This document shows positions 21,828 to 51,032 of a stretch of DNA of 64,000 nucleotides, piece by piece. Each line of letters begins with the position of its first letter. Position 1 is the stretch's first letter. Source of the stretch: Oscillospiraceae bacterium (GTDB lineage Bacteria > Bacillota > Clostridia > Oscillospirales > CAG-272); assembly GCA_015063695.1 (NCBI GenBank), contig SVTQ01000004.1, positions 3,784 through 67,783 of the forward strand, read 5' to 3'. The translations under genes and the position numbers were made by a program. The notes under the pieces are model-generated. The model saw nothing but the letters and a program-made list of their open reading frames with translations, searched no databases and was not told the DNA's origin.

Positions 21828-21845
21828 TTGAAGGAGGAAATAACA

Positions 21846-22844
21846 ATGGCTAAATTTGAAGGTTACGAAAGACGCGAGGCGAAAATTCTTGCCGCTCTCG
21901 CTGAATACGGCATTTCCTCTATCGACGAATGTAAGGAAATCTGTGACGCTAAGGGTATCGACCCCTACAAGATCGTTGAAGAAACACAGCCTATCGCATT
22001 TGAAAACGCAAAGTGGGCTTACACAGTAGGTGCTGCTATCGCAATCAAGAAGGGCTGCACAAAGGCTGCTGACGCTGCTGCCGCTATCGGTATCGGCCTC
22101 CAGGCATTCTGCATCCCCGGTTCCGTTGCTGAAAACCGTAAGGTTGGTCTCGGCCACGGCAACCTCGGCTCCATGCTCCTCTCCGAAGAAACAGAATGCT
22201 TCTGCTTCCTCGCAGGTCACGAATCCTTCGCAGCTGCTGAAGGCGCTATCAAGATCGCCCTCAACGCTAACAAGGTAAGAACACAGCCCCTCCGCGTTAT
22301 CCTTAACGGTCTCGGCAAGGACGCTGCTATGATCATCTCCCGTATCAACGGCTTTACATACGTTCAGACTCAGTTCGATCCCGCAACTGAAGAAGTTACA
22401 GTTGTAAGCGAAAAGGCATACTCCAAGGGTCCCCGTGCAGATGTTAAGTGCTACGGCTCCGACAGCGTTCCCGAAGGCGTTGCTATCATGAGACTTGAAA
22501 ACGTTGGCGTTTCCATTACAGGTAACTCCACTAACCCCACAAGATTCCAGCACCCCGTTGCAGGTACATATAAGAAGTGGGCAAACGAAAACGGCGTTAA
22601 GTACTTCTCCGTTGCTTCCGGCGGCGGTACAGGCCGTACACTCCATCCCGATAACATGGCAGCAGGCCCTGCTTCCTACGGTATGACAGATACTCTCGGC
22701 CGTATGCACGGTGACGCTCAGTTTGCAGGTTCCTCTTCCGTTCCCGCACACGTTGAAATGATGGGTCTCATCGGCGCAGGTAACAACCCCATGGTTGGTA
22801 TGACTGTTGCTGTTGCAGTTGCTATCGAAGAAGCAAGCAAGTAA
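21846..22844 (+). CDS. GGGtGRT-family protein (function unknown)
   Basis: Contains the eponymous SGGGTGRT motif. I prefer the ATG at 21846 (MAKFEGY), with GAAGGAGGA 8 nt upstream, over the TTG at 21828 given in the track. Confidence 0.8.
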   Translation: MAKFEGYERREAKILAALAEYGISSIDECKEICDAKGIDPYKIVEETQPIAFENAKWAYTVGAAIAIKKGCTKAADAAAAIGIGLQAFCIPGSVAENRKVGLGHGNLGSMLLSEETECFCFLAGHESFAAAEGAIKIALNANKVRTQPLRVILNGLGKDAAMIISRINGFTYVQTQFDPATEEVTVVSEKAYSKGPRADVKCYGSDSVPEGVAIMRLENVGVSITGNSTNPTRFQHPVAGTYKKWANENGVKYFSVASGGGTGRTLHPDNMAAGPASYGMTDTLGRMHGDAQFAGSSSVPAHVEMMGLIGAGNNPMVGMTVAVAVAIEEASK

Positions 22845-22854
22845 TAAGAAATAC

Positions 22855-22924
22855 GGTCGCTTTTTGAAAAAAGCTCCGCAAAAACTTTAAAACGAACCCC
22901 CGAGGGCATGCCCTCGGGGGTTAA
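22855..22924 (+). repeat. ~70-bp terminator-like repeat, left copy (flanks the AT-rich island)
   Basis: GGTCGCTTTTTGAAAAAAGCTCCGCAAAAACTTT (34 nt identical to 27531..27564), then hairpin AACCCCCGAGGGcatgCCCTCGGGGGTT. Confidence 0.8.
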
Positions 22925-23204
22925 ATACTTTATTGACTTATAAACACACAGAACTGTCCCCTGTGTTTTTATAAAAATCAGTTAGACCCATCATTTTGAG
23001 GTTTTCCTCTATGATGGGTTTAATGTCTATATACATAATATGAAGCCGCAGTAAACGCGGCAAGTGTTATTCTAAACGCCCAGATCGAAAAAATAGAAAA
23101 AATTCTATCAACGGAGAGGGCGGGTAAAATCCGCCCTTGATTTTGTTTGTTCATCTGCTATAATAGAATTATAGAAACTTGTATCTAGATGGAGGAATTT
23201 GAGT

Positions 23205-23849
23205 GTGAAATATCATTACTATTCAACACCCGATGAGATGAAGCACCTTGAAGCATGGGGATTCAATTGGCTTGAATTTGTAACTTCTATCCCTGCACCT
23301 ATGTTTCTTGTTACATCATATAAATCAAACGGAAAAGCAAATGCTTGTATGCAATCATTTGCAAGTTTTACAACAGGAGATAGAGGAGCGCGTTTTTTTG
23401 CAATTCTTTCGAGTGTGAACAAAAGCGGACATTTGTATAAAACAATAATTGAAAATGGATGTGCAGTAATAAACTTCATGTCGGCAGATTTCTACGACAA
23501 TTCTATGGAAACCATAAAGAATAATCAGTTTGAAGTTGATGAGATATTAGAATCAAAATTAACAAGTGTACCCGCAGATAAAGTAAATGCACCTATGGTA
23601 GAGGAATGTTTTATGAATTTGGAGTGTAGGTTTTCTTGGGAAAAAGAAATCGCTCCAAATGATGACCATGTTATTATCTGCTTTGAAGTTGTGAATGTTC
23701 ATATCGATAAAAACCATCTTGATAATCGCGTTGAAGAGAACGGAATACTTTACAACATTCATTATCCTATAAACCCAGAAAAGTATAGCGGTAAAGCACA
23801 TGATTATGTAGGTATTGTAAAACCGTTAATTGATGCAGGTGAATATTGA
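23205..23849 (+). CDS. flavin reductase-like (FMN-binding split-barrel) domain protein
   Basis: About 214 aa. The pattern PAPMFLVTSYKSNGKANACMQSF...GCAVINF is typical of flavin_reduct domains. The start is ambiguous: TTG 23199, or GTG 23205, which is better spaced from the GGAGGA RBS. Confidence 0.65.
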   Translation: MKYHYYSTPDEMKHLEAWGFNWLEFVTSIPAPMFLVTSYKSNGKANACMQSFASFTTGDRGARFFAILSSVNKSGHLYKTIIENGCAVINFMSADFYDNSMETIKNNQFEVDEILESKLTSVPADKVNAPMVEECFMNLECRFSWEKEIAPNDDHVIICFEVVNVHIDKNHLDNRVEENGILYNIHYPINPEKYSGKAHDYVGIVKPLIDAGEY

Positions 23850-23913
23850 CCTACTATGGCAGACCGAAGGTAGTTTCAATTTGTAAAAAAATCAAGCCAC
23901 GGAGGGCTAAAAA

Positions 23914-24327
23914 ATGTTAGGATATAATGCTATAGTTGTATTCAATAAAGAAACAGATAAAATGTTGATGTGCAAAAGAAGACATAATCCGTATAAGGGA
24001 TTGTCAAATTTTGTTGGCGGAAAAATAGAAGAAAATGAGAATGGTTTAGATGCGGCATACAGAGAGCTTGAAGAAGAAACCACAATAACAAAAAACGATA
24101 TTATTCTTTCTCATTTAATGGACTTTACATATCACCTTGGAAATTGTTATCTTGAAGTTTATGTTGAAAATTTGAATAAATTAATTGATGTTAGCGGAGA
24201 TGAAAATGATCTGTATTGGTCAACATTAGACCATAATTTTTTTGATGCAACACAATATGCGGGAGAAGGAAATATCGGGCATATTATGATGCATGTTGAA
24301 ATGTTCAAGGAAAAATTATTAAAATAA
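23914..24327 (+). CDS. NUDIX hydrolase
   Basis: 137 aa. Nudix box GGKIEENENGLDAAYRELEEETTI. Confidence 0.85.
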   Translation: MLGYNAIVVFNKETDKMLMCKRRHNPYKGLSNFVGGKIEENENGLDAAYRELEEETTITKNDIILSHLMDFTYHLGNCYLEVYVENLNKLIDVSGDENDLYWSTLDHNFFDATQYAGEGNIGHIMMHVEMFKEKLLK

Positions 24328-24359
24328 AAGATGAACTTGAATTTGCAGGGGGAATAAAT

Positions 24360-24881
24360 ATGGGTAATGCTATATTAGTCTGCGGTTTGAACGGAGCAGG
24401 AAAAAGCACACTGGCAAAAGCACTTGCCGAAAGATTAAATCTCCGCTTTATTGATATTGAAGATATATACTTTGAAAGCCAAGACAATCCTGATTATCCG
24501 TATGAAAAATCCCGTCCCTACGAAGAGGTTGTATCATTGCTTGCAAACATTGTAAACGGTGAAAATGACTTCGTTTTGGCATCGGTAACAGGTGATTTCG
24601 GAGATGAATTTATTTCTCATTTGAAGTGTGTAATTTCCGTTGAAGTTTCAAGGGAGATACGATTAAAGCGAGTACACGATAGGTCATACACACTTTTCGG
24701 TGAAAAGAGTTATAAAGGCGGAGATTTTTACGAGCAAATCAAGTCGTTCCATAAATTTTGTGCATCAAGAGATGAAAACTTGGTTAACGATTGGCTAACC
24801 ACTATATGCTGCCCCATTATTAGAGTAGATGGAACGCTACCGATATGTGACAATGTAAATCTAATTGCCGAAGAATTGTAA
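24360..24881 (+). CDS. small P-loop NTPase / kinase-like protein
   Basis: 173 aa. Walker A GLNGAGKST at the N-terminus; size and layout of nucleoside/shikimate-kinase-like AAA proteins. Confidence 0.6.
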   Translation: MGNAILVCGLNGAGKSTLAKALAERLNLRFIDIEDIYFESQDNPDYPYEKSRPYEEVVSLLANIVNGENDFVLASVTGDFGDEFISHLKCVISVEVSREIRLKRVHDRSYTLFGEKSYKGGDFYEQIKSFHKFCASRDENLVNDWLTTICCPIIRVDGTLPICDNVNLIAEEL

Positions 24882-25017
24882 AACAAATTCCCAATTTATC
24901 GAATTGATATGCCGGAGCGGGACGTGACAATCATGGGACAGTCCCCTGATTGAAGCAGTTTATATATCACTCAAAAATTGTTTTTTATGTATATCCATAT
25001 AAATTAAGGAGTTCATT

Positions 25018-25614
25018 TTGAAAACAAATATAACGTTTCTAAGAGACTGGCTCATAACACTTTTAATAACTACCTTACTGTGGGATTTTGTCGGCGGTAT
25101 TTTTCTACTCATAGCACGATTTATATTCCCGAAACAAGCAGACCATTTTTTGTTTTTTGGCATAATTGGGACTATTGTCTTTTGCTGTGTATTGGCAATA
25201 AGATCGTATAAGTCAGGTTTAGATATTAACGGAAAACGTATTCCTGTGTCGTTGGCCATGCCGATAGCGAGCATGATCATTGCGCTTGGCGTTTATATAG
25301 TTGCTTATATAATATCGGGGTGTAATTATATTGCAGGGCCTGTTGCACATTCATATGTTACCGTGTTTTGGGGCAATGGCGTAGACCAAGCCTTTATTCA
25401 CGATATTACTATGTCTCAACATCTTTCCGTTTTTGTTCCGCTTGGATCATTGTATGTAGCCGTTTCTTTGGGTGCGTACATTTTAGCGAAGTATAAACAG
25501 GATCATCATAACAGTGTCGTTCGCAAATTAAGGGAAGAGGATATGCAAAAGAAATCCGACGATCCCTTTGAAGAAGCGTTAAAAAACGGATTAGGTAACA
25601 GAAAACATAGGTAG
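25018..25614 (+). CDS. hypothetical integral membrane protein
   Basis: 198 aa. About 4 predicted TM helices and a charged C-terminal tail. TTG start with AAGGAG 7 nt upstream. Confidence 0.5.
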   Translation: MKTNITFLRDWLITLLITTLLWDFVGGIFLLIARFIFPKQADHFLFFGIIGTIVFCCVLAIRSYKSGLDINGKRIPVSLAMPIASMIIALGVYIVAYIISGCNYIAGPVAHSYVTVFWGNGVDQAFIHDITMSQHLSVFVPLGSLYVAVSLGAYILAKYKQDHHNSVVRKLREEDMQKKSDDPFEEALKNGLGNRKHR

Positions 25615-25701
25615 TTATACTTGTGATTTAATGAAATAAAACATCTCCACTTGAGTTTAAACTTTTGATATAACCCTTATTATTCTTACATAGAGGTAAA
25701 A

Positions 25702-26574
25702 ATGAACAGGAAATATAAAAAAAGTAAAATTGAAATAAACAAATATACATGTTCCCGACTACTCTCTGACCATAACAATAAAGCGCTGATTTCAACATTC
25801 TCATGTTCCAAAAACCCGTCTCTTGCGGCACACTTAAAACGAAAAGCGTGGTTTGAAGAACAAAACAATAAACGAGCACATTTTCTCGTCAAAGAAGATA
25901 ATAAAATCGTCTTATATTTTTCATTACAATGCGGTATATTGGTACAAGCACATAAAAAAATACTTAGCGGTATAAATCATCGAGAAACAGATACCGGAAC
26001 AGAATATTTTATTGATGACGATATAATTGACGTTACGAAAACTATTCCCGCAATTGAACTTTCACACTTTTGTGTAAACGATTCATACCGAAACAAAAAA
26101 AGTGAATGGGTTGTTTACAATGGTCCCTTCACATACAAAGTCGGAGAGTATTGCTTTTATCAATATGTCGCTCCTATTGTTATCGATATTGCCGAAAAGG
26201 TCGGAGTAGAAATTCTTTATCTTTTTTGTGCAGACGAAGGAAGCGACAAATTGCTTGAATATTATTCTTCCCTAAACTTTAAAATAATGGATGATATGGC
26301 ATGTGTAAGATCTGACTACGAAAGCAATCTCTCGTGTTTAACTCAAAAAATCTGTGATTTAAAAAAATCCACCCAAGAGTTCATGAATGAGAAAAAAGCA
26401 AACGATATTTTAACATACTTGAAAACACACAAAAATATAAGCATACAAAAAATCAAAAAAATAACTGAACTTTCTAATACATATGTTCTTTTAAATAAAC
26501 TCATTAAAGAAAATCTAATAGAAGAAGATTCAGAACGAAAACATACATACGTATTAAAACAAAAATCTTTGTAA
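25702..26574 (+). CDS. hypothetical protein, GNAT-like core plus C-terminal winged-helix-like tail
   Basis: 290 aa. IELSHFCVNDSYRNKK and KLLEYYSSLNFKIM resemble GNAT beta4 and alpha4. The C-terminal ~70 aa (ILTYLKTHKNISIQKIKKITELSNTYVLLNKLIKENLIE) look wHTH-like. Confidence 0.4.
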   Translation: MNRKYKKSKIEINKYTCSRLLSDHNNKALISTFSCSKNPSLAAHLKRKAWFEEQNNKRAHFLVKEDNKIVLYFSLQCGILVQAHKKILSGINHRETDTGTEYFIDDDIIDVTKTIPAIELSHFCVNDSYRNKKSEWVVYNGPFTYKVGEYCFYQYVAPIVIDIAEKVGVEILYLFCADEGSDKLLEYYSSLNFKIMDDMACVRSDYESNLSCLTQKICDLKKSTQEFMNEKKANDILTYLKTHKNISIQKIKKITELSNTYVLLNKLIKENLIEEDSERKHTYVLKQKSL

Positions 26575-26614
26575 ATGTACGAAAAATTAGTGGTTTACCG
26601 ATAGAGGGCACATT

Positions 26615-27529
26615 ATGGAAAACACGGTAAGAAGTATTGCCGAAAAACATTTCGGACAGGATATTGAATCTATAGAACCTTTGGGCGGCGGATTTTACGG
26701 GAGAGTTTTTCTTGTTAAAATGAAAAAAGCTCCGTTTTCGGCGGTGGTCAAGCTTTATCTGTTTGACGGATTTGCAGTAAATGAAGCTTTGCAACTTAAA
26801 ACTCTCTCTCGACACTCAAAACTGAAAATGCCCGAAGTTTACGGTGTTTACAAGGCAGGGGAAACAGGGCTTCCCCACGATGCTTTGATCATGGAATTTC
26901 TTGACGGAGTAAATGCAGGGTGGCTTGACGTTTCCGCTCTTTCTTCGGATGCGAAAAACACAATATGCGAAAATATTGTTGATAACCTAATCTCTATTCA
27001 CAGCAAGGCGAACTTTGAAGGCTTCGGAGAGCTCTCCCAAAAAGAATTCTTTCCCACGTGGCAGGAATTTTACCGCCCCAAAGCAAAACGAATTGTTGAA
27101 AAAGCGCGATATCTGAAAAGTATAGGTCAAATCTCCGATTACGTTATGGACGTATTTGAAAGCTCCTTTGAAAACTTTGATAAGATATTTTGCCTTCCAA
27201 TTACCGAGGCTCGTCTTATTCACGGAGATTACAACACGTGGAATATTATGCTTAACGACGAAAAAAGCCGAGCAGAATACGTGATCGATCCTTTCGGCTG
27301 TTGCTTCGGTGACAGCGAATACGACCTTTATCAACTTGATAACGCCAACGGAAAAGATTACGGACTTTTAAAAAGATACGCCGAAAAAGTAACTTTAAGT
27401 GAAAACTTTATTCAGAAAAGATATTTTTATGAGCTTTACTCGGAGATAAGCCACTACCACGATGCCCGTGTCCCCGTTGACTTTGCCGCCGCTGAGCGCA
27501 TGGCAAATAATCTTTCAGAATTTTTATAA
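26615..27529 (+). CDS. aminoglycoside-phosphotransferase / fructosamine-kinase-fold kinase
   Basis: 304 aa. Catalytic loop HGDYNTWNIM and downstream IDPFGCCFGD, as in the APH/choline-kinase fold. Confidence 0.75.
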   Translation: MENTVRSIAEKHFGQDIESIEPLGGGFYGRVFLVKMKKAPFSAVVKLYLFDGFAVNEALQLKTLSRHSKLKMPEVYGVYKAGETGLPHDALIMEFLDGVNAGWLDVSALSSDAKNTICENIVDNLISIHSKANFEGFGELSQKEFFPTWQEFYRPKAKRIVEKARYLKSIGQISDYVMDVFESSFENFDKIFCLPITEARLIHGDYNTWNIMLNDEKSRAEYVIDPFGCCFGDSEYDLYQLDNANGKDYGLLKRYAEKVTLSENFIQKRYFYELYSEISHYHDARVPVDFAAAERMANNLSEFL

Positions 27530-27530
27530 A

Positions 27531-27604
27531 GGTCGCTTTTTGAAAAAAGCTCCGCAAAAACTTTTAAAGAGAACCCCCGAATGCTCACACATTCGGGGGT
27601 TAAG
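27531..27604 (+). repeat. ~70-bp terminator-like repeat, right copy
   Basis: Same 34-nt core as 22855..22888, then hairpin AACCCCCGAATGctcacacATTCGGGGGTT. The outer stem is conserved; the inner stem differs but still pairs. Confidence 0.8.
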
Positions 27605-27650
27605 TGTTTGTATTGGAGTTTTAGAATAAACAGAACCGGCACGGGGGTTT

Positions 27651-29888
27651 TCATTTGATTGTTAGTTTCAAAGCTTCATCCGGTTTTACACTATAGGCGG
27701 TGATTATTGCGGTGCTGTTTTCAAAAGTAAATTTTGTTTCGTGAGTGGGACAAGAAACAGTCTTGACGGGGGAAGCATTTCTGATTTCGAAAGTTATGTT
27801 ACGGGAGGAAACCTCGCCGTCGAAGCCGTTGCCTTCTTTTTTGAGGGTTATTTCAATAAAGTTTTCCTTTTCCTCGTAGAAGATCCTTGTAAGTCTGTGT
27901 CCAACCTTTTCGCTTATTCCGTCATCTTCATAAAGAACACTTTCTCCATCAGCCCCGGCATAGATAACAACGGTGGGCTCTGTCAGCTTTTCACTTGTCA
28001 TTCTGCTTGTATAGGGTTGAGTTACTAAAGGAAATCCTGCTTTTGCAAAGAGGGGGAAGGTTTCAATGCCGTGTTCTACGGTGTATTCTCTACCGCCCTC
28101 GAAGCTTTCGCCGCTGAAAATATCGTACCATACCCCTTCGGGGAGCCACAAGGCTTTCTTTGCAACGTAGTTTTCATCCCCTGCAGAGCAAATGGGGGAA
28201 ACGAGAAGACCGTCGCCCAACAAATAGGTTGAAGGGTAATTATAGGAGTTTTCGTTTTGGGGTTCTTCGATATACAAAGGCTTCAGAAGGGGTAGCCCTT
28301 TTTCACAGCACTCGTAAGCCGAAGAATAAATATATGGGAAAAGTTTTGAACGAAGAGCGTATGATTTTTTCATGGACGAAGCAAAAGGCTCTGCCCACGT
28401 CCAAGGGCGTCTGTCCAGCCCTTCAACTCCGCACATATGAACACGGAGCGCGGGGCTCATTGCGCCGAACTGCACCCAACGGGCATAGACTTCACCCTGC
28501 CCTCCGGGCACGTCGTCCTGAAAACCGCCGATGTCGTGACTCCAGAAAAAGCATCCTGCGTTTCCTGCAGTAACTGTCATTTGCACCTGGAAATCAAGGG
28601 TCTCAAAAGAAGTAACCGTATCGCCCGAGAACCAGGCGGGATGTTTGTGGTCCCCGAAGCCGCCCCATCTGGAGAAGGACATACCGCGCCTTTTTGCTGT
28701 ACCTTTTTCGTCCTTTAGTTTTGCATTTTCATAGTATAGGTGGTTCAGCCATCTCAAATGGGAAAGACCCTTTATGCCGTTTACGTTGGGGTAGAGGTAG
28801 TCCTGTTGCCAGTCAAGCCAGCGAAATGCGATATCTTTTTCTTCCATTTCTCTGTTTGTAGCATCAAAAAACGCCTTCATATAACGGAAGTCTCCCGCAT
28901 TGAAACGGTAGTTAATATTTTTCTTTTTGGGATTTTCTTTTTCTCTTTCGGATATTCTCTCCGTAACGTCGGGAACAGTTTCTTTGTACCCTGCGGCGGA
29001 AAGCTTTTCTGCAAAAACGGCGAAGCACTCGTCTGCATCACGCACCCCGTCGCAGGGGTGATCGTTGAGAACTACGGAAACTCCCTTTTCCGAAAGGGAA
29101 TTAATAAGTCCGTCCGGATCGGGAATCAGTCTTCTGTTCCATGTGTAGCCTGTCCAGCCTAAGTTCTGCCCTGCGTGGCCGTAGCCGTAGAGATAGTAAG
29201 GCTCGCCGTGGGCGTGCCCCCAGTCCTGATAGTGCCAGTCCATATCAAAAACAAGAATGTCAAGGGGAAAACCGTTCTCTTCGTATTCATCGGCAATCTT
29301 CAAAAATTCTTCTGCCGTGTAGGGCCACCAACGGGAATACCATGACCCGAAAAAGTTCTTTCTCGGAAGGGGCGCTTTTCCCGAAACTGCGAAAAAGTCG
29401 GAAAAAGCCGCTTTATAATCGGCGCCGTAGGCAAAAAGATAAAAATCGTGAAGGTGTTTTTCACTTCTGTTTTTTGCCCAGCCGTCCCAAAGGACGGGAC
29501 TGCAGGAATCGTCTATTACCTGCCAACCGTCACGGGAAAGAAGTCCGTCGGGAACTTCTCTGAAACCCGAAACTCCGTCAAGAGTATGAAGGGTTCCTTT
29601 TAAGTTTTCTTTGTTTTTGTCGCCATAGTGCCAACGGCAAGACGTTCCGCCTGCGTGAATATCAGCATAAAGAGTATCGCGAGAAAACTCTCCGCCGTGA
29701 TAGTAAAGAGTAAGCTTTTCCGTCTTAACGGTCAGAATTTCACTGTCCGTTACCTCTGCATCACATTCAACACCGCGAAGGGCAAAGAGAGTGGGTGCAT
29801 CCTCAAAGACACCGTCTTTGGCATATTCAATTCTGACAGCCCCCTCGGTTATAACCGTAAATCGGGCATTACCTTTTACAATTTTCAT
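27651..29888 (-). CDS. glycoside hydrolase family 31 (alpha-glucosidase/alpha-xylosidase-like)
   Basis: 745 aa. N-terminal RFTVITEGAVRIEY beta-sandwich, ILVFDMDWH and FFWSHDIGGF catalytic-region motifs, and a C-terminal beta-sandwich. Confidence 0.8.
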   Translation of the reverse strand: MKIVKGNARFTVITEGAVRIEYAKDGVFEDAPTLFALRGVECDAEVTDSEILTVKTEKLTLYYHGGEFSRDTLYADIHAGGTSCRWHYGDKNKENLKGTLHTLDGVSGFREVPDGLLSRDGWQVIDDSCSPVLWDGWAKNRSEKHLHDFYLFAYGADYKAAFSDFFAVSGKAPLPRKNFFGSWYSRWWPYTAEEFLKIADEYEENGFPLDILVFDMDWHYQDWGHAHGEPYYLYGYGHAGQNLGWTGYTWNRRLIPDPDGLINSLSEKGVSVVLNDHPCDGVRDADECFAVFAEKLSAAGYKETVPDVTERISEREKENPKKKNINYRFNAGDFRYMKAFFDATNREMEEKDIAFRWLDWQQDYLYPNVNGIKGLSHLRWLNHLYYENAKLKDEKGTAKRRGMSFSRWGGFGDHKHPAWFSGDTVTSFETLDFQVQMTVTAGNAGCFFWSHDIGGFQDDVPGGQGEVYARWVQFGAMSPALRVHMCGVEGLDRRPWTWAEPFASSMKKSYALRSKLFPYIYSSAYECCEKGLPLLKPLYIEEPQNENSYNYPSTYLLGDGLLVSPICSAGDENYVAKKALWLPEGVWYDIFSGESFEGGREYTVEHGIETFPLFAKAGFPLVTQPYTSRMTSEKLTEPTVVIYAGADGESVLYEDDGISEKVGHRLTRIFYEEKENFIEITLKKEGNGFDGEVSSRNITFEIRNASPVKTVSCPTHETKFTFENSTAIITAYSVKPDEALKLTIK

Positions 29889-42690: not shown

Positions 42691-42707
42691 ATATGGAGGA
42701 CATAAAA

Positions 42708-43712
42708 ATGCCCGAATATATACCGCCGTATGAAATTACGGATAAAATTTTAAGTCTTGTTGCTTCCATTTCAGAAAAAATCGGAAGAATTACAGAACGA
42801 AGCAGTCTGAGTTCAAAACCTCACTTAAGAAAAAATAACAAGATCAAATCTATTTACTCTTCTCTTGCAATTGAGGCAAATTCTCTTTCCTTTGGAGAAG
42901 TAAAAGACGTTATAAGCGGAAAAACTGTTATTGGAAAAGAAAAAGAGATACAGGAAGTAAAAAATGCTTATGCCGCTTATGAGGAAGTATCAAAGCTTGA
43001 CGTTTACAGCTTGAAAGAGCTGAAGCGTCTGCACGGTATCATGACTAAATATACCGTTAATATCAGCGGTGAGTTCAGGCGCGGAGAAGAGGGAGTCTTC
43101 AACGGAGACAAGTGCATTTTTATGGCTCCGCCCGCAAGATTTGTTCCCTCTCAAATGGAAGACCTTTTCAACTGGATGACAGAAAAAAAGGATACTGTAC
43201 ATCCGCTTATACTTTCCGCCGTTTTCCATTATGAATTTGTTTTTATTCATCCTTTTACCGACGGAAACGGAAGAATGGCCCGTTTGTGGCATACGGCGCT
43301 CCTTGCAAAATGGCAACCGATTTTTGAATATATTCCCATAGAAAGCCAGATTGAAAAATTCCAAAACGGTTATTATGATGCAATCGCAAAATGCCACAAA
43401 GAAAGCAGCAGTACATTTTTTATAGAGTTTATGCTTGAGCAGATATACACAATTCTTAATGAAGTTTCTGCCACCGTTACCTCTCCTTTCGATAATCTTT
43501 CCGAATACGTTACAAGGCTCCTTTCGGTGATGAAGTATGATAAAGCATATTCTGCAAATGAGATCCTCGCCTTGCTTGGACTAAAATCCAAAGAGACGTT
43601 AAGAAAGAATTATCTGACCCCCGCAATCAAAGATGGTCTGATAAGTATGAGCGAACCGGATAAGCCGAGAAGTAAAAACCAACGATATATTAAAACTCAT
43701 AGTGCTGATTAA
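42708..43712 (+). CDS. Fic-family protein
   Basis: Active-site HPFTDGNGRMARLW. N-terminal helix SLAIEAN, where Ala follows the inhibitory Glu instead of G/N. I prefer the ATG at 42708 (MPEYIPPYE), with GGAGGA 7 nt upstream, over 42693. Confidence 0.9.
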   Translation: MPEYIPPYEITDKILSLVASISEKIGRITERSSLSSKPHLRKNNKIKSIYSSLAIEANSLSFGEVKDVISGKTVIGKEKEIQEVKNAYAAYEEVSKLDVYSLKELKRLHGIMTKYTVNISGEFRRGEEGVFNGDKCIFMAPPARFVPSQMEDLFNWMTEKKDTVHPLILSAVFHYEFVFIHPFTDGNGRMARLWHTALLAKWQPIFEYIPIESQIEKFQNGYYDAIAKCHKESSSTFFIEFMLEQIYTILNEVSATVTSPFDNLSEYVTRLLSVMKYDKAYSANEILALLGLKSKETLRKNYLTPAIKDGLISMSEPDKPRSKNQRYIKTHSAD

Positions 43713-43752
43713 CCAAAATTTAACTATAAATCGGACAGAAAGGAGAGCTGAA

Positions 43753-45078
43753 ATGTTACCCGAAAAGGCTGAATTTATTATAAACAGACTGCGTGAAAAC
43801 GGCTTTGAGGCTTACGCAGTGGGCGGCTGTGTGCGAGATATGCTTCGCGGCACCGTTCCCAATGATTTTGATATTACAACTTCTGCTCTTCCTCATGAAA
43901 CAAAAGAGGTCTTTTCTGACCTTCACACCATTGATACGGGTATTTCTCACGGAACGGTAACCGTTATGGTTGACAATGAACCCTTTGAAGTCACAACTTT
44001 TCGATGTGACGGTGAATATCTTGATTCGCGCCACCCCGAGAGCGTAACTTTTACCATGAGCGTTGAAGACGATCTTTCAAGACGTGATTTTACGGTGAAT
44101 TCCATGGCAATGGGAGCTGACGGAAAGATAATCGACCCTTTCGACGGAAAAAGCGACCTTGAAAACAAGATGATCCGTTGTACGGGAGAAGCCGAAAAAC
44201 GTTTTTCCGAGGATGCCCTTCGCATCATGAGAGCCCTTCGCTTCTCTTCCGTTTTAGGATTTGAAATAGAAGAAGCGACTGCGGCGGCAATACACAAAAA
44301 GAAGGAGCTTCTTCTTAATATCTCCGTAGAGAGAATTTTTGAAGAACTTAAAAAGCTTCTTTGCGGAAAAGACGTTTTGAGAATTCTTATGGAATATTCC
44401 GACGTTATCTGCACGGTTATTCCCGATCTTTCGCCTTGCGTTGGATTTGACCAAAAGAATAAACACCACGTATATGATATTTACGAACACTCGGCAAGGG
44501 CAGTTGATGCCATTGAACCCGACAGCACTCTTCGTCTCACAATGCTTCTTCACGATGTGGGAAAACCCTCGGTCGTAAGCGAAGATGACAAAGGATTCAG
44601 ACACTTTTTCGGACATCCCGAAATAAGCGCAAAAATGGCAGAAGATATTCTCGGCAGACTCCATGCCGACAACGCCGCAAAGGACACCGTAAGCCTTCTT
44701 TGCAGATGGCATGACAAAGACATCATCCCCGATGAAAAACACGTAAAAAGGCTGTTTATGCGTCTCTCCTATGAGCAGATCATCATGCTTTGTAAAGTGA
44801 GAATGGCAGATAATGCCGCCCAGAATCCCAAATTTCAAAAACGGGGCGAGGATGCCGTCAAAATAATGAAGCTTGCAGAAAGAATTATATTAGAAAAACA
44901 GTGCGTTACTCTTCGTGATCTGGCAGTCAACGGTAACGACATGAAAAAGTGCGGATACAACGGTACTGAGATCGGAAGGATTCTGAATCTTCTTCTTGAA
45001 AAAGTTATCGACGGAGAAATTGAAAACAAAAAAGAAATACTTCTTCTATTTGCAGAAAGAATTAACAATAATATCTGA
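43753..45078 (+). CDS. cca: CCA tRNA nucleotidyltransferase / poly(A) polymerase-family enzyme with HD domain
   Basis: VGGCVRD and DFDITT nucleotidyltransferase motifs plus HDVGK. ATG at 43753 with AAAGGAGAG upstream; the track start at 43702 overlaps the Fic gene end. Confidence 0.85.
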   Translation: MLPEKAEFIINRLRENGFEAYAVGGCVRDMLRGTVPNDFDITTSALPHETKEVFSDLHTIDTGISHGTVTVMVDNEPFEVTTFRCDGEYLDSRHPESVTFTMSVEDDLSRRDFTVNSMAMGADGKIIDPFDGKSDLENKMIRCTGEAEKRFSEDALRIMRALRFSSVLGFEIEEATAAAIHKKKELLLNISVERIFEELKKLLCGKDVLRILMEYSDVICTVIPDLSPCVGFDQKNKHHVYDIYEHSARAVDAIEPDSTLRLTMLLHDVGKPSVVSEDDKGFRHFFGHPEISAKMAEDILGRLHADNAAKDTVSLLCRWHDKDIIPDEKHVKRLFMRLSYEQIIMLCKVRMADNAAQNPKFQKRGEDAVKIMKLAERIILEKQCVTLRDLAVNGNDMKKCGYNGTEIGRILNLLLEKVIDGEIENKKEILLLFAERINNNI

Positions 45079-45174
45079 AATAATAATCCCTGCTTTGTAA
45101 AGGAACTTATCTTCCGCGCAAAACAGGGATTTATTCTTGTTATTATATGAATTTATAAGATGTCTATATACTGT

Positions 45175-45203
45175 AAAAGGGAGTCTCCGAAGAGACTCCC
45201 TTT
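45175..45203. terminator. hairpin terminator downstream of the giant surface-protein gene
   Basis: AAAA-GGGAGTCTCcgaaGAGACTCCC-TTT, a perfect 9-bp stem. Confidence 0.7.
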
Positions 45204-45228
45204 AGAGTTTTATTTAGCTTTTAAAATA

Positions 45229-48200
45229 TCAACCAAGTTCGTCTGCTGTGATATCCTTGTTGATGAGCTGCATGAGGAGAGCCTGGTCTCTGTTGTTTAC
45301 TCTGCCGTCACCGTTAAGGTCAGCATTTTCAATTATTACCTCATCTTCTGTAATATCCTTGTTGATGAGCTGCATGAAGAGAGCCTGGTCTCTGTTGTTT
45401 ACTCTGCCGTCATCGTTAAGGTCACCGAGGAGAAGGTCGGGTTCGTCGATAATTTCTTTTTCAAGAATTACGCCGCAAACTGTACATCTTGTTACAAGAT
45501 AACCGTCTTCTTCTGCGGGTTCGCCTGCTGTATGACCTGTTTCGGGAACGATAACTGCCTTGAGGTTAGTATTGAGGTTGCCTTCAGCATCAAGCCATGC
45601 ATATCCGCAAGCTTCGCAGTACCAGTACTCAATGTTACCGGCATCTGTACATGTAGGAGCTACTGCTTCAACGTGTGTAAGCTCTGCGTGTGCTGCGGGA
45701 AGAATTACTGCCTTGAGGTTTGTATTGAGCGTGCAATCTGCGTCGAGCCATGCATATCCGCATACGTCGCAGTACCAGTGCTCAATGTTACCGTTTTCGA
45801 AGCATGTAGGAGCTACTTCTTCAACGTGAATGATGTTGTGCTTGCATTCATCATCGATCTTTTCTTCGGCAATAACTACACCTGCATTTTCAAATTCAAC
45901 TGCAAGGTCGTTAAGGTCTGCATCAAACGTATCGTAAGGAAGATCGCAAATCAGAGCGATTTCATAGATACCTTCTGCTGCGCCTGCAAACGTAATTGTT
46001 ACTGCAGTACCGTCGCCGTAGTAGTTTTCGAGTTCATTAGCTTCATAGTATACAACCAATGCTCTCTTGCCTTCTGTAGATATACCGTTTTCCTCGAAAA
46101 CAGCAGAAATAACGGGAGAAGTTGCAGGATCCATGTTGTAGTCATCACCGAGTGTCATTTCGCCTTTTTCTGTAAAGATAACGTTACCGGATTCTACAGA
46201 AAGAATTTCGAGTGCATCATCAAATACAACGATGAATCTGGAGCCCCAGATACCGGGGTTGTTCTTGATGGAGATGTCTACGGTAAATTCTTCACCGGGA
46301 GCTGCTGTTACGTCGGAAGCAACGTACTGAAGTGCATCAGCTGCAGGAAGAGCGATCTCGAGAATTGTTTCGCCACATGCTGTACATGTGAGAACCTTAG
46401 CGTCGTCTGTGTATTCCCATTCGCCTGCTACGTGACCTGTTGCAGGAATGATCTCTTCGGAGATTGTTTCACCGCAAACTACACAGCTTACTGTGCTGGA
46501 ACCGTCTTCTGTACATGTGGGAGCAACTTCAACGGGTTCGCCTGCGATGTGTGCACATGCGGGCTTTTCTGTTACGTTGAGAGCACCTGCTGCGAATTCG
46601 TAAGCGATTTCTTCTTTAGCATTGTTGAAGCAGTCTTCAGCGAGAGCTGCAACACCGATCTCGTATGCGCCGATTTCAGCTGCTGCGAATTCGAGAGTTA
46701 CGAGTGTACCGTTACCGATAATATCAGCGAGTTCGTCTGCTTCAATGTAGATGCATACGAATTCCTTGCCTGCTGCGTCAACACCGCATTCAGCGAATGC
46801 TGCTTCTGCTGCTGCGAAGGAAGCGGGAGCCTGTTCGAATTCACCGATTGTGATTTCGGAGTCAGCTGCGATCTCACCGTTGTTTACGCCAACGAGTGTA
46901 AGAGCTGCATCGTAGTAAACGAAGATACGTGTTGCCCAGAAGCCGTCGTTACCTGTGAGGTATACGGGAACTGTAGCTGCGTTGCCTGTTACTACGCTTA
47001 CGTTGTCAACTGTGATTGTAGGAACGTTAGCGATTTCCTTTTCGTTCAGCTTTTCACCGCAAACTGCGCAGTACTGAACCATCATATCGCCTTCGATTAC
47101 CCATTCGCCTGCCTTATGGCCGGGAGCTGCGATAACCTTTGTTTCAACTTCGCCGCATGTGCCGCAAGTCTTTGTTTCGGAACCTGTTTCTGTACATGTG
47201 GGAGCTACTGTTACAACATCACCCCAAGCGTGGCCGGGAGCCTTTGTTGTCTTTGTTTCTGTCTTGCCGCAGAGACCGCAATTTCTTTCTTCGATCTTAT
47301 CTGTTGTGCAGTCGCCTTCCTGAGTTGTTTTCCAATCGGACCATTCGTGTTCGCAAACTACTTCGCGAGCTACGATCTCACCGGAAACCTTTTCAAGAGA
47401 AACGTTTTCATAATCTGCATTGTATACGTTTTCAGCGGAGTAAGCTACGCCGATTTCGTATGCTACGTCAGCACCTGCAGGTACTGCGAATGTTGCGCCG
47501 AAGAGGATGCCGTCAGCTGTTACGTCATCGAGGTCAGCACTTTCAAGATAGATAGCTGTTACCTTCTTACCTGCTGCATCAACACCGCATTCATCGAATG
47601 CAACTACGCAGTCTGCAAGGTAATCGGGAGCCATGTTGAATACGGATTCATCGTATGTGATCTCAGCGAATACGTCGCCTGCTTCGATAGCTGTGAGCTC
47701 GAGAGCTTCATCATAGTATACGTATACGAGCATACCGTAGATGCCGGGGTTGTATTCTACAGAAACGTTAACAGTTGCTTCTGCTTCTGTTTCAGCTTCG
47801 ATGGAGTCAACGATGATCTTGGAGATTTCTGTTGCGGGAATTGTTTCGGAAGCAACTACTTCGCCGCAAACTGTACAGCTCTTTGTTCTGAGACCTTCAG
47901 TTGTAGGACCGGGAGCTACTACTTCTACCCATTCACCGGATGTATGACCCTTAGCGGGAACGTCGATTGTTTCTGTGCTGCCGCATGCGGAACATGTTGC
48001 TGTTGCAATACCTGTTTCTGTACATGTGGGAGCCTTTGTTTCTACGTAATCACTCCAAGAGTGACCGAGAGCTGCGATAGGCTGTGTCTTTGTTGCGCCG
48101 CAGTTTGCACATGTTGCTGTTGCAACACCTGCTTCTGTACATGTGGGAGCCTTTGTTTCTACGTATTCTCCGTAGTCGTGACCGATAGGTGCAATAGAGG

Positions 48201-50883
48201 ATGTCTTTGTTGCACCGCAGTTAGCGCACGTTGCTGTTGCAACACCTGCAACTGTACATGTGGGAGCCTTTGTTTCAACTGCTTCACCGTATGCGTGGCC
48301 GAGAGCAGCAACGGGTGCTGTGTTCATGAGCTTGCCGCAGTTTACGCAAGACTGAGTCTTTTCGCCTGCAGCTGTACATGTGGGAGCCTTTGTTTCTACC
48401 CATTCACCTGCAACGTGGTCGCAAGGATCAAGTGCGGGAATAATGATAGCACCGTCGTTTGTGTAGTATTCGAGAGCAACGCCTTCGTTGTTTACTGTGT
48501 AACCGTCGAGAGCGATGATACCGATTTCGAATTCGTATGTATCATTGTTGGGAAGATCGAATACGAGAGTTGCGAGCTCGCCGTCGCCCTTAACGTTTTC
48601 AAGGGAGAGGCTTTCTGTGTAGAACTTATAGCAAAGAACGCCGTCAGTGGAAACGCCTGCTACAGCAAATGCTGCTGCCGCTGCTGCGTCTGTTGCGGGA
48701 TCTACGTTGTAGTAAGAATCGATGATCTTTTCGAAGAGTTCGCCTTCGATTACGCCGTTGAGGTCGAGAGCTGCGTCATAGTATACGTAGAAGCCCATGG
48801 ACCAGATACCGTCGTTACCAACGAAAGTAACGGGAACCTTAACGCCTGCCGCACCCTGAGCTGCTTCAACTGTTGCGATCGTTACTGTAGGATCGGGAAT
48901 AAGGGGTATAATTTCTGTGTCGATCGTTTCGCCGCATACTGCACACTTGAGTTCCTTAAGACCTGTTTCCTGTCTTGTAGCTTCCTTAGTTACTACCCAT
49001 TCGCCTTCCTTATGGCCGAGAGCGGGGATAACTGTGTGGCTGAGTTCTTCGCCGCATACTGTACATGTTACGGATGTGTAACCGTCAACTGTACATGTAG
49101 CTGCTACTGTTGTTGTTGTGGACTTGTGTCCTGTTTTGGGAAGAGTTTCAACGATCTTTTCGCCGCATACTGTACATGTGTAAGACTTGGAACCGTCTTC
49201 TGTACATGTGGGCTGAATAGTTGTAACTGCGCCCTGCTTGTGACCGAGAGCAGGAACAACAGATGTCTTTGTTTCGCCGCATACTGTACATGTGAAGAGC
49301 TTTTCACCGGGTGTTGTACATGTAGCTGCTGTAATTGTCTTGCCTGCATCCCAAGAATGGCCGAGAGCTGCGATATCTTCAACTTCTACCTTGCCGCAGT
49401 TGGGACATGTTCTTTCTCTTGAACCCTTTTCGGTACATGTGGGAGCCTTTGTTTCTGCCCAATCACCGAACTTGTGGCCTTCACCGTTTTCAGCGAATAC
49501 GTAACCGTAACCTGCTGTGAGAACATTGGAAGTTGCTGCTACTGCATTGGATGCAGAGTAACGGGAACCAACGTTATCAACGAAGAGTGTATATGTCTTA
49601 CATTCGTAGCTGTAAGATGTGTTTACGTTGGAGGAGTTAGCTGTTGTGATATAGATATCACCGCCGCACTGGTTAGCGCCGCAAGCGTTGCCGGAGAATG
49701 CGCCGCCTGTGATAACGAGTGCCTTAGCGTTTGTGGAAGTTACAGCGATAGCACCGCCGAACTGACCTGCTGTGTTATTTGTAATGAAACCGCCGGAAAC
49801 TGTGAGAGTACCGTTGCCGTCAACAAAGATACCGCCTGCACTGTACATCTGAGATGCGTTGCCGGAGATAGTACCGCCGGAAACTGTCATTGTACCGAGA
49901 TTGTATACAGCACCGCCGCAAGACTTAGCTGTGTTACCGGAAATTTCGCCGCCTGTGATGTTGAGAACACCTGTATTGTAGATCGCGCCACCGAAGAAGA
50001 TGGTGGGATCGCTCTTGTCTGTGTATGTAGCTGTATTGCCGGAGATAAGACCGCCGGAAATGTTAAGAGTACCCTGGTTGTAGAAACCGCCGCCGTTTCT
50101 TCTGGAGTTGTTATTGATAACGGAACCGTTTTCCATATTGAAGGTACCTGCAGCTGCGATGTGAACACCGCCTGCGCCGCCGCCCTGTTCGTTGGCAACG
50201 TTGTAGGAGATCTCGCCGCCGTACATATTGAATGTACCGCTTACTACGCCGATTGCACCGTTACGACCGTCGTTCTGACCGCCTTCGCCGCCGATAACGC
50301 CGCCGTACATATTAACAGTACCGCCTGCAACTGTGATAGCTGCGCCGAACTGAGTTGTAGCGGAACTGGAGTTGTGCATATGGATATTGGTAATAGAACC
50401 ACCGTTGATGTTAAGTGTACCTACAACTGTGATACCGCCGCCGCTTACAGCTGCGTTACCTCTGTTTGTTGTAAGAAGCGCACCGTCATTGAAGTTAAGA
50501 ATACCGCCGTCCTGGACAACGATCATTTCTGTTGCCAGCTGAGCTGTTTCATAACTTGTGCGGTTACCGTTCACTGTGATGTTTTCCAGTGTAAGTTCGC
50601 CGCCGTCTGCAACTACAAACATATAGGATTTGTAGCTTGCTGCTCTGAGGATGGAACTACCGTTTGTTGATGTGATAGTTGCCTTACCGCTTACGGTAAT
50701 GGATGCTGTAAGCTCGATGTTGGCTGTTACGTCGATAACGTCAGCACCGCTTGCCAGCGCGCTCTGCAACTGTGCAAGAGTTGCTGCTTCAGCTGCTACC
50801 GCAGATGCCGTGAAAGGCACGGAAGCGAGAAGCATGCAAACTACAAGCAGAATAGCAAAGCTTTTCTTGAAAGTGTTTCTCAT
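45229..50883 (-). CDS. secreted scaffoldin-like protein: signal peptide, beta-helix head, 18 His/Cys3 mini-modules, 4 cohesin-like modules, C-terminal dockerin
   Basis: 1884 aa. Signal peptide MRNTFKKSFAILLVVCMLLASVPFTASA. GGAIY/GGAVY/GGGFYN beta-helix repeats over aa ~30-465. Cohesin-like modules at aa 664-817, 1019-1173, 1287-1438 and 1516-1673. Duplicated dockerin DLNDDGRVNNRD / DLNGDGRVNNRD in the last 69 aa. Confidence 0.85.
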   Translation of the reverse strand: MRNTFKKSFAILLVVCMLLASVPFTASAVAAEAATLAQLQSALASGADVIDVTANIELTASITVSGKATITSTNGSSILRAASYKSYMFVVADGGELTLENITVNGNRTSYETAQLATEMIVVQDGGILNFNDGALLTTNRGNAAVSGGGITVVGTLNINGGSITNIHMHNSSSATTQFGAAITVAGGTVNMYGGVIGGEGGQNDGRNGAIGVVSGTFNMYGGEISYNVANEQGGGAGGVHIAAAGTFNMENGSVINNNSRRNGGGFYNQGTLNISGGLISGNTATYTDKSDPTIFFGGAIYNTGVLNITGGEISGNTAKSCGGAVYNLGTMTVSGGTISGNASQMYSAGGIFVDGNGTLTVSGGFITNNTAGQFGGAIAVTSTNAKALVITGGAFSGNACGANQCGGDIYITTANSSNVNTSYSYECKTYTLFVDNVGSRYSASNAVAATSNVLTAGYGYVFAENGEGHKFGDWAETKAPTCTEKGSRERTCPNCGKVEVEDIAALGHSWDAGKTITAATCTTPGEKLFTCTVCGETKTSVVPALGHKQGAVTTIQPTCTEDGSKSYTCTVCGEKIVETLPKTGHKSTTTTVAATCTVDGYTSVTCTVCGEELSHTVIPALGHKEGEWVVTKEATRQETGLKELKCAVCGETIDTEIIPLIPDPTVTIATVEAAQGAAGVKVPVTFVGNDGIWSMGFYVYYDAALDLNGVIEGELFEKIIDSYYNVDPATDAAAAAAFAVAGVSTDGVLCYKFYTESLSLENVKGDGELATLVFDLPNNDTYEFEIGIIALDGYTVNNEGVALEYYTNDGAIIIPALDPCDHVAGEWVETKAPTCTAAGEKTQSCVNCGKLMNTAPVAALGHAYGEAVETKAPTCTVAGVATATCANCGATKTSSIAPIGHDYGEYVETKAPTCTEAGVATATCANCGATKTQPIAALGHSWSDYVETKAPTCTETGIATATCSACGSTETIDVPAKGHTSGEWVEVVAPGPTTEGLRTKSCTVCGEVVASETIPATEISKIIVDSIEAETEAEATVNVSVEYNPGIYGMLVYVYYDEALELTAIEAGDVFAEITYDESVFNMAPDYLADCVVAFDECGVDAAGKKVTAIYLESADLDDVTADGILFGATFAVPAGADVAYEIGVAYSAENVYNADYENVSLEKVSGEIVAREVVCEHEWSDWKTTQEGDCTTDKIEERNCGLCGKTETKTTKAPGHAWGDVVTVAPTCTETGSETKTCGTCGEVETKVIAAPGHKAGEWVIEGDMMVQYCAVCGEKLNEKEIANVPTITVDNVSVVTGNAATVPVYLTGNDGFWATRIFVYYDAALTLVGVNNGEIAADSEITIGEFEQAPASFAAAEAAFAECGVDAAGKEFVCIYIEADELADIIGNGTLVTLEFAAAEIGAYEIGVAALAEDCFNNAKEEIAYEFAAGALNVTEKPACAHIAGEPVEVAPTCTEDGSSTVSCVVCGETISEEIIPATGHVAGEWEYTDDAKVLTCTACGETILEIALPAADALQYVASDVTAAPGEEFTVDISIKNNPGIWGSRFIVVFDDALEILSVESGNVIFTEKGEMTLGDDYNMDPATSPVISAVFEENGISTEGKRALVVYYEANELENYYGDGTAVTITFAGAAEGIYEIALICDLPYDTFDADLNDLAVEFENAGVVIAEEKIDDECKHNIIHVEEVAPTCFENGNIEHWYCDVCGYAWLDADCTLNTNLKAVILPAAHAELTHVEAVAPTCTDAGNIEYWYCEACGYAWLDAEGNLNTNLKAVIVPETGHTAGEPAEEDGYLVTRCTVCGVILEKEIIDEPDLLLGDLNDDGRVNNRDQALFMQLINKDITEDEVIIENADLNGDGRVNNRDQALLMQLINKDITADELG

Positions 50884-51003: not shown

Positions 51004-51032
51004 ATTATATAGTAATTGACTACCAATGTCAA
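51004..51032 (-). promoter_or_regulatory. consensus sigma-A promoter of the giant gene
   Basis: The minus strand reads TTGACA, a 17-nt spacer, then TATAAT, about 120 nt upstream of the 50883 start. Confidence 0.55.

Follow-up and report, generated by a model that had tools for sequence, protein, structure and literature searches.

Cys/His units between the cohesins of a putative adaptor scaffoldin from gut Clostridia: relatives of IgA protease domains and candidate zinc-stapled spacers

Classical scaffoldins connect their cohesins through X-modules or through flexible linkers rich in Pro and Thr. We have analysed a stretch of 64,000 nucleotides (the window) from an Oscillospiraceae bacterium (positions 3,784 to 67,783 of contig SVTQ01000004.1, assembly GCA_015063695.1), which carries at 45229..50883, on the minus strand, a gene for a secreted protein of 1884 residues (open reading frame (ORF) list and translation). 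Judged from its sequence, the gene appears to code for an adaptor scaffoldin that is secreted and belongs to the cohesin-dockerin (cellulosome-like) system of an uncultured gut bacterium of the Clostridia, and that has 18 small units rich in cysteine and histidine set between its large domains. The protein resembles the cellulosomal adaptor scaffoldins of the ScaA/ScaB type (Ruminococcus flavefaciens, Acetivibrio, Pseudobacteroides) in combining several cohesins, within one polypeptide, with a signal peptide and with a dockerin at the C-terminus. It differs from classical scaffoldins in that rods of Cys/His units, predicted to be folded, take the place of the linkers, with connectors of at most eight residues, and in that a β-helix head stands at the N-terminus.

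The closest described relatives of the units are ZBD1 and ZBD2 (also CTD2 and CTD4) of the M64 IgA protease (IgAse) of Thomasclavelia ramosa (UniProt Q9AES2, ThomasA; PDB 9qa6). Two papers from 2025, which draw on models and small-angle X-ray scattering (SAXS), raise the possibility that these regions are a zinc-binding rod or periscope fold of a novel kind (PMC12237041, PMC12415215). The ZBDs are described as elongated chains of three-stranded up-and-down β subdomains with zinc sites predicted at the subdomain interfaces (PMC12237041), and the SAXS data for CTD2 fit a fully extended rod (PMC12415215). The sites are predicted only, and in the consulted sections of the two papers no metal measurement is reported for the ZBDs.

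Other projecting rods offer more distant likenesses. The stalk repeats of Gram-positive periscope proteins (SHIRT, and G5-E of SasG and Aap; Whelan et al., 2021, PMC8201768) are likewise tandem β modules that form a projecting rod and differ in copy number between homologues, and the repeats of RTX adhesins (PMC7493085) have metal-stiffened junctions, with Ca2+ there and Zn proposed here. The fold and ligands of both are unrelated to those of the present units, for which Cys and His from two adjacent units are proposed. Moreover, near-identical DNA repeats are typical of periscope proteins, whereas neighbouring units are only 69–82% identical here. A full-text literature search on scaffoldin linkers and zinc stalk repeats returned the IgAse papers only, with no scaffoldin precedent; the term ‘cysteine-rich’ in a 2026 preprint on ruminococcal cellulosomes refers to CAP domains and not to these units.

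Anatomy and relatives of the 18 units

From the N-terminus, the protein comprises a signal peptide, the β-helix head, five rod blocks alternating with four cohesins, and the C-terminal dockerin. Parsing the 1884-residue ORF with a regular expression and a hidden Markov model gave exactly 18 C-x-x-C-G knuckles, compared with a mean of 0.2 and a maximum of 3 after residue shuffling. Each knuckle is preceded, 16–24 residues upstream, by a histidine that is invariant across the 18 units. The units are arranged in blocks of 5, 5, 3, 2 and 3, all on the minus strand: block 1 (units 1–5, residues 467–659) at 48907..49485, block 2 (units 6–10, residues 820–1015) at 47839..48426, block 3 (units 11–13, residues 1176–1284) at 47032..47358, block 4 (units 14–15, residues 1442–1511) at 46351..46560 and block 5 (units 16–18, residues 1679–1812) at 45448..45849. 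An earlier reading of the letters of the window (the original prediction) had counted 18 units in these same blocks, had set them between large domains and had seen that the last unit of every block is without its first Cys. All of this was borne out, Pfam supporting the cohesins and the dockerin, and the span of 45460–49479 given at that time was nearly right (parsed span 45451–49485).

His and three Cys at constant spacing are found in 13 of the 18 units. The first of these cysteines (Cys1) is gone from the final unit of all five blocks (units 5, 10, 13, 15 and 18), having been substituted in units 5 and 10, whereas in the shortened units 13, 15 and 18 the hairpin tip is seven residues shorter. 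A second positional rule had been missed in the original prediction. In each of the four blocks that follow a cohesin, the first unit has an additional Cys placed two residues ahead of its His (position His−2, giving CxH), namely C821 (with H823), C1177 (H1179), C1443 (H1445) and C1680 (H1682) of blocks 2–5, in the contexts PCDH, VCEH, ACAH and ECKH, respectively. Unit 1, which follows the head, has no such Cys cap and bears Glu468 at His−2.

The unit length of 30–35 residues suggested at first did not hold; the period is 39 residues (117 bp), with 32 residues in three terminal units and 51 in units 16 and 17. The longer variant has the tail CxxCGYAWLDA..LNTNLKAV and appears as a 153-bp tandem repeat at 45543–45828. 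Within block 2, Tandem Repeats Finder reported a period of 117 bp with 2.7 copies at 47992–48311 (83% matches). Units 7–9 are thus a tandem repeat, as had been stated, but not near-identical in their DNA (pairwise identities of 82%, 73% and 69%). Unit 16 (45736–45849) contains an additional cysteine, C1717, where unit 17 has Gly.

For the units, no family reached its cut-off in scans against Pfam and NCBIfam, whether the query was the whole protein, a single block or a family member. Sub-threshold Pfam matches to zinc-ribbon, zf-CHY and zf-H2C2 families scored 17–24 bits against cut-offs of 22–40 and aligned only 8–20 residues. The classical zinc ribbon was rejected on these scores and on the presence of one knuckle per unit instead of two. 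Likewise, the top PDB sequence matches to C2H2 fingers and rubredoxin cover 12–20 residues of knuckle or linker only. For the C2H2 finger, the matches to 2i13 and 6ml2 align just the TGEKPY-CxxCG linker and knuckle, and no helix is predicted for the units. The CxxCG knuckle with its strand is shared with zinc ribbons, the rubredoxin knuckle and the C2H2 linker region, the ββα fold is not. PF26918 is not the family of the repeat since it is confined to 3 of 120 repeat-bearing matches, two of which (P0195 and P0210) also carry Big_2.

Comparison of the 18-unit profile with PDB sequences identified one genuine relative, the T. ramosa IgA protease (9qa6_A, E = 2.7e-5), with three full-length matches at residues 857–880, 938–965 and 1102–1132. 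Unit 5 alone matched the same protein with E = 7e-7 over 38 residues (938–975). By sequence comparison the units are homologous to ZBD1 and ZBD2, and because sequence, predicted fold and site placement agree, they belong to the same module family, of a kind only recently noted. The two share sequence similarity and three-stranded up-and-down subdomains of ~35–40 residues; placement of the Cys/His sites at interfaces is indicated indirectly, by the positional rules, next-unit compensation, covariation and predicted topology set out below. Both are extracellular, and the IgAse domains form an extended rod that projects other domains (PMC12237041, PMC12415215). They differ in that the IgAse has 3 + 2 divergent subdomains with mostly 2His + 2Cys predicted, compared with regular Cys3His arrays of up to five units here, and in that one is a sortase-anchored protease and the other a cohesin-dockerin scaffoldin. 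Hence the original failure to assign the units to a named family is matched by the Pfam and NCBIfam results but overlooks a described homologue. Relative to the consulted sections of the IgAse papers, in which no capping rules for the ZBDs appear, the regular Cys3His arrays are new, as is a grammar of N- and C-caps whose statistics support the sharing of ligands by adjacent units. Such rods as spacers between the cohesins of a scaffoldin would also be new.

Predicted fold and proposed ligand sharing between units

The fold of block 2 (residues 820–1019) was predicted with AlphaFold2 (AF2) from an alignment of 106 database homologues. The model, with a mean pLDDT (predicted local distance difference test) of 94.5 and a predicted template modelling score (pTM) of 0.65, contains 15 strands, three per unit, and no helix; the pLDDT is 97–98 over most unit junctions and falls in the last unit. 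Each unit is confidently predicted to be a three-stranded, up-down-up β-meander. The His lies before strand 1, Cys1 (in PTCT) occupies the turn that joins strands 1 and 2 at the far end, and the turn that joins strands 2 and 3 at the near end holds the CxxCG knuckle, after which strand 3 reaches the far end and is followed there by the His of the next unit. A Foldseek search of the model against the PDB found no fold match, with superpositions on globular proteins at a root-mean-square deviation of ~40 Å and TM scores of 0.2 or less.

Within one unit, His and Cys1 are separated by ~13 residues of mostly extended chain. Since this would place them at opposite ends of the unit, no common ion is expected to reach both, and by the same topology Cys1 of unit k−1 would adjoin the His and CxxC of unit k. 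The argument is one of topology and not of measured distances. It bears directly on the idea, suggested by the original prediction, of a His/Cys3 zinc knuckle or ribbon that is self-contained within every complete unit, the terminal units being degenerate copies whose site is incomplete. Thirteen units with exactly one His and three Cys at constant spacing are what such a site would look like, and the sub-threshold zinc-ribbon matches do fall on the CxxCG knuckle. However, the AF2 model separates the His of a unit from its Cys1 by the length of the meander, zinc ribbons have two knuckles to the single one of each unit, and the CxH N-cap is left without an explanation.

The profile search that had been proposed at the outset was made against 1.84 billion representative proteins. 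It returned 52,207 matches at E ≤ 1e-3 and 6,505 at E ≤ 1e-30, indicating that the module is very common, with the IgAse ZBDs as its described relative. The weaker-scoring matches probably include eukaryotic C2H2 arrays. The top-scoring proteins are giant, with as many as 86 stretches matched in one protein and with arrays that reach at least 30 units. Approximately 5,200 units, parsed from the 150 best-scoring proteins, were used for the statistics that follow.

Cys1 is present in 3850 of 4018 units that have a successor (95.8%) and in only 4 of 79 array-final units (5.1%, p = 7e-92). At His−2, a Cys or His is found in 55% of array-initial units (41/74), compared with 1.0% of units preceded by another (39/3806, p = 3e-54), the substitute ligand of the N-cap being Cys in 39% and His in 16%. 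A scan of offsets in units without an upstream Cys1 donor showed strong enrichment at His−2 only (43% versus 0.5%, p = 5e-70). Furthermore, where Cys1 is missing in the middle of an array, the next unit carries an extra Cys or His at His±2 in 29 of 85 cases (34%), against 53 of 3271 (1.6%) otherwise (p = 1e-27). No compensation for the loss of Cys1 was seen within the same unit (1/229, 0.4%, versus 52/3042, 1.7%; p = 0.18), and a His 3–4 residues before the knuckle, considered as an alternative fourth ligand, was not enriched among the family units.

Covariation was examined in an unbiased scan across all 1521 inter-unit column pairs by mutual information with average product correction. The top signal couples the Cys1 turn of unit k (columns 17–20) with the three residues that precede the His in unit k+1, and the column pair (17,2) ranks seventh. 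The His is matched in ~90% of aligned family units. In terminal units the His and CxxC remain essentially invariant, and for this reason these units are taken to be functional rather than decayed. Both positional rules are kept in nine homologous scaffoldins, where post-cohesin blocks start with CxH or HxH and all blocks end with a unit devoid of Cys1. Unit counts vary among these homologues (5, 5, 3, 2, 2; 5, 4, 3, 2, 3, 2; 6, 3, 4, 2, 4, 2; and others), and even P0272, at 84% identity, has 17 units compared with the 18 described here.

The retained ligands of the terminal units, and compensation seen in the following unit but absent from the unit that lost Cys1, are again difficult to reconcile with a self-contained site, to which we give hardly any credence. 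What stands of the original description is that the units are discrete, predicted folded modules with metal-site-like residues, of which 13 have one His and three Cys; a zinc-ribbon-like site within each unit is contradicted by the predicted topology and by the family statistics.

A different possibility is that no metal is bound at all and that the cysteines form disulfides, or are otherwise structural, as in EGF-type repeats. This would suit an extracellular protein, where disulfides are the usual cross-link, and metal binding has been measured for no member of the family. Against it, internal units have an odd number of cysteines (three) together with a near-invariant His, and the N-cap may be Cys or His, an interchange that fits metal ligation and not disulfide pairing. 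In the IgAse, no disulfides are present in structures or models and a reducing agent improved monodispersity (PMC12237041). Moreover, the hosts are known from gut metagenome-assembled genomes (MAGs) and are presumably anaerobes. A metal-free array thus seems very unlikely to us.

The proposed spacer rods

We favour, with a probability of roughly 0.7, a model in which the 18 units form stiff, zinc-stapled rods with inter-unit metal sites and serve as the spacing modules of a secreted adaptor scaffoldin. From the units and their order, the two positional rules, the homology to the IgAse ZBDs, the confident meander prediction and the inter-unit covariation, we infer the metal and its identity, the rigidity of the arrays and their role as spacers. 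The units would stack end to end into a rod in which a single tetrahedral metal ion, most likely Zn(II), sits at every junction, liganded by Cys1 of unit k−1 (or the N-cap residue) and by His, Cys2 and Cys3 of unit k, so that the metal staples adjacent units and stiffens the rod. The array-final unit would shed Cys1, often along with the hairpin tip, because it has no successor to serve, and the first unit would recruit a ligand at His−2 (CxH, or HxH in relatives) because it has no predecessor. Of the 18 sites predicted in this way, 13 would be inter-unit Cys3His, four would be N-capped Cys3His and one, in unit 1, would consist of His and CxxC, possibly with Glu468. Together the predicted sites account for 53 of the 54 cysteines in the blocks.

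Scaling from ~110 Å for three IgAse subdomains, the blocks would be ~7–18 nm in length. The connectors between rod and cohesin are no longer than eight residues, on which ground a semi-rigid adaptor scaffoldin with fixed cohesin spacing is proposed. The rods would set fixed spacings among the four cohesins, the head and the dockerin, and the variable number of units among homologues would tune these spacings.

Instead of acting mainly as spacers, the arrays might offer a surface that binds glycan, host or cell wall, or they might be a zinc-responsive element whose stiffness or assembly follows the metal supply. PMC12415215 allows for this, as the function of CTD2 and CTD4 may rely on zinc and be regulated by it, and the units occur in 13 ORFs of a small genome with varied partner domains. 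In contrast, conservation at the surface is poor apart from the ligands and turn glycines (column identity averages 49% among the units of this protein), unit number varies freely between homologues, and the arrays always stand between or beside other functional modules. In addition, the IgAse ZBDs are dispensable for catalysis (PMC12237041). We regard a mainly binding or zinc-responsive role as unlikely, while a spacer role would be compatible with an additional binding function, which tempers the assignment of the arrays as spacers.

Several other observations weigh against zinc-stapled spacer rods. No fourth ligand is obvious in approximately half of the units without an upstream donor, unit 1 of this protein among them, and C1717 fits no predicted site, being the sole block Cys without a role. 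The sample of 150 proteins is repeat-rich and phylogenetically non-independent, and the mutual information may be inflated by alternating unit subtypes. AF2 models no metals, the ligand geometry being drawn from topology and covariation only, and neither a metal measurement for any family member nor an experimental structure of the repeat was found. Finally, Cys-rich zinc sites are unusual in extracellular proteins and would require the anoxic gut lumen.

The scaffoldin gene, its genome and the wider family

The assignment as a scaffoldin is consistent with cohesins above the Pfam cut-off, a dockerin, and many dockerin-bearing proteins in the same genome. The Pfam Cohesin profile (PF00963) scores 47 bits against a cut-off of 24.1 (E = 3.8e-12) in four stretches, and an alignment of the four modules, ~160 residues each, gives pairwise identities of 30–37%. 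All are encoded on the minus strand. Cohesin 1 (residues 660–819, with the best Pfam stretch at 666–814) lies at 48427..48906 and is matched by the PDB cohesins 3ul4, 4ums and 2xdh; Pfam and the module alignment place cohesin 2 (residues 1016–1175) at 47359..47838, cohesin 3 (residues 1285–1441), which shows this same range of identity to the other three modules, at 46561..47031, and cohesin 4 (residues 1512–1678) at 45850..46350.

The type-I dockerin (residues 1819–1875; 45259..45429, minus strand) matches Pfam Dockerin_1 (PF00404) with 38.3 bits against a cut-off of 22.9 (E = 1.5e-9), as well as PDB dockerins such as that of CelS (2mte, E = 8e-9). Its two halves (45239–45322 and 45341–45424) share 94% DNA identity over 84 nt, far above that between neighbouring rod units. 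Such identity points to gene conversion or to duplication within the gene not long ago, and to a dockerin that is symmetric and has a dual binding mode.

A signal peptide was read at residues 1–28 (MRNTFKKSFAILLVVCMLLASVPFTASA; 50800..50883, minus strand), with the basic N-terminus, hydrophobic core and A-x-A site of the Sec type. The head that follows (residues 29–466; 49486..50799, minus strand) is Gly/Asn-rich, comprises ~440 residues and is modelled by AF2 as a right-handed β-helix made entirely of short strands (pLDDT 92.7, pTM 0.93). It has no Pfam match even at E ≤ 10. The nearest PDB folds are the PfbA adhesin (4mr0, TM 0.49), SRRP binding regions, phage tailspikes and pectate lyases, all of them weak matches (TM 0.5 or less, E > 1e-3), and the head might serve as an adhesin or act on polysaccharides as an enzyme. 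Identity to this head is 45–96% in 16 database homologues. Many homologues that share the head (P0277–P0286) are without cohesins, yet have units and a dockerin.

Around the gene, a consensus σ70-like promoter (TTGACA-17-TATAAT, 12/12) was found by pattern match at 51004..51032 on the minus strand, 120 nt upstream of the scaffoldin ATG. A further pattern match, a strong hairpin with a 12-bp stem at 45176..45203 (no strand assigned), lies past the scaffoldin stop codon between convergent gene ends and is a probable terminator. Two housekeeping-type genes, at 42693–43712 (+) and 43702–45078 (+) with a mutual overlap of 11 nt, converge on the 3′ end of the scaffoldin gene; by their sequences, one is Fic-domain-like (motif HPFTDGNGRMARL) and the other resembles a CCA-adding or poly(A)-polymerase-like nucleotidyltransferase. 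An antisense open frame at 45160–49422 (+), encoding 1420 residues of Cys-, Phe- and Val-rich low complexity, is almost certainly a shadow ORF and not a gene, as it follows from the codon composition of the repeats.

The host genome (1.85 Mb in 45 contigs, 91% complete) contains 43 dockerin matches in ~42 ORFs, whereas cohesins detectable by Pfam are confined, genome-wide, to this ORF and one of 2344 residues on contig 19. The latter (C19, ~21300–28300, minus strand) has a sub-threshold Cohesin match (22.2 bits), a dockerin and eight units, and may be a second scaffoldin. The surplus of dockerins could mean either that most cohesins are too divergent for Pfam, as has been reported for human ruminococci (bioRxiv 10.64898/2026.02.05.704116), or that the system is unusually dockerin-heavy. 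Of the 13 ORFs with units in this genome, seven also carry a dockerin. One ORF of 3920 residues on contig C18 (~53427–65000, minus strand) has 33 units and ends in a dockerin; its ~14 repeated domains of ~120–150 residues are set apart by one or two units at a time, a second and larger case of the use of units as spacers.

The closest named relatives are gut MAGs of Eubacteriales, Acutalibacteraceae and Clostridia. Among the genomes sampled from the same order, 159 of 301 contain units (53%; 86 of 153 genera), as do 16 of 17 from the same family, and in a sample spread evenly over the phylum they occur in only 12 of 401. The domains that accompany the units in relatives are without exception extracellular (cohesin, dockerin, Flg_new, β-helix, PMP, LRR_5, SLH, Big_2 and PG_binding). 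A much wider claim would be that Cys3His units constitute a general, uncurated class of extracellular metal staple between domains, with which gut Clostridia could build rods of any length according to a grammar of CxH N-cap, internal Cys1 passed to the next unit and Cys1-less C-cap, and that the rods of this scaffoldin set the geometry of a cellulosome-like complex, with a stiffness, and hence an architecture, that follows the zinc supply in the gut lumen. We hold this generalization to be unlikely.

With tens of thousands of protein clusters matched, the repeat is among the commonest unnamed building blocks of the surface proteins of gut Clostridia, and its capping grammar provides a concrete, cheap handle on how the rod holds together. 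If the proposed model is correct, an extracellular Cys/His metal staple between modules would be added to the known means of stiffening bacterial stalks, such as the isopeptide bonds of pili and the Ca2+ that RTX adhesins use. Some scaffoldins would then space their cohesins with rigid, length-tunable rods and not with flexible linkers, which would have a bearing on the arrangement of enzyme complexes and on the design of synthetic scaffolds.

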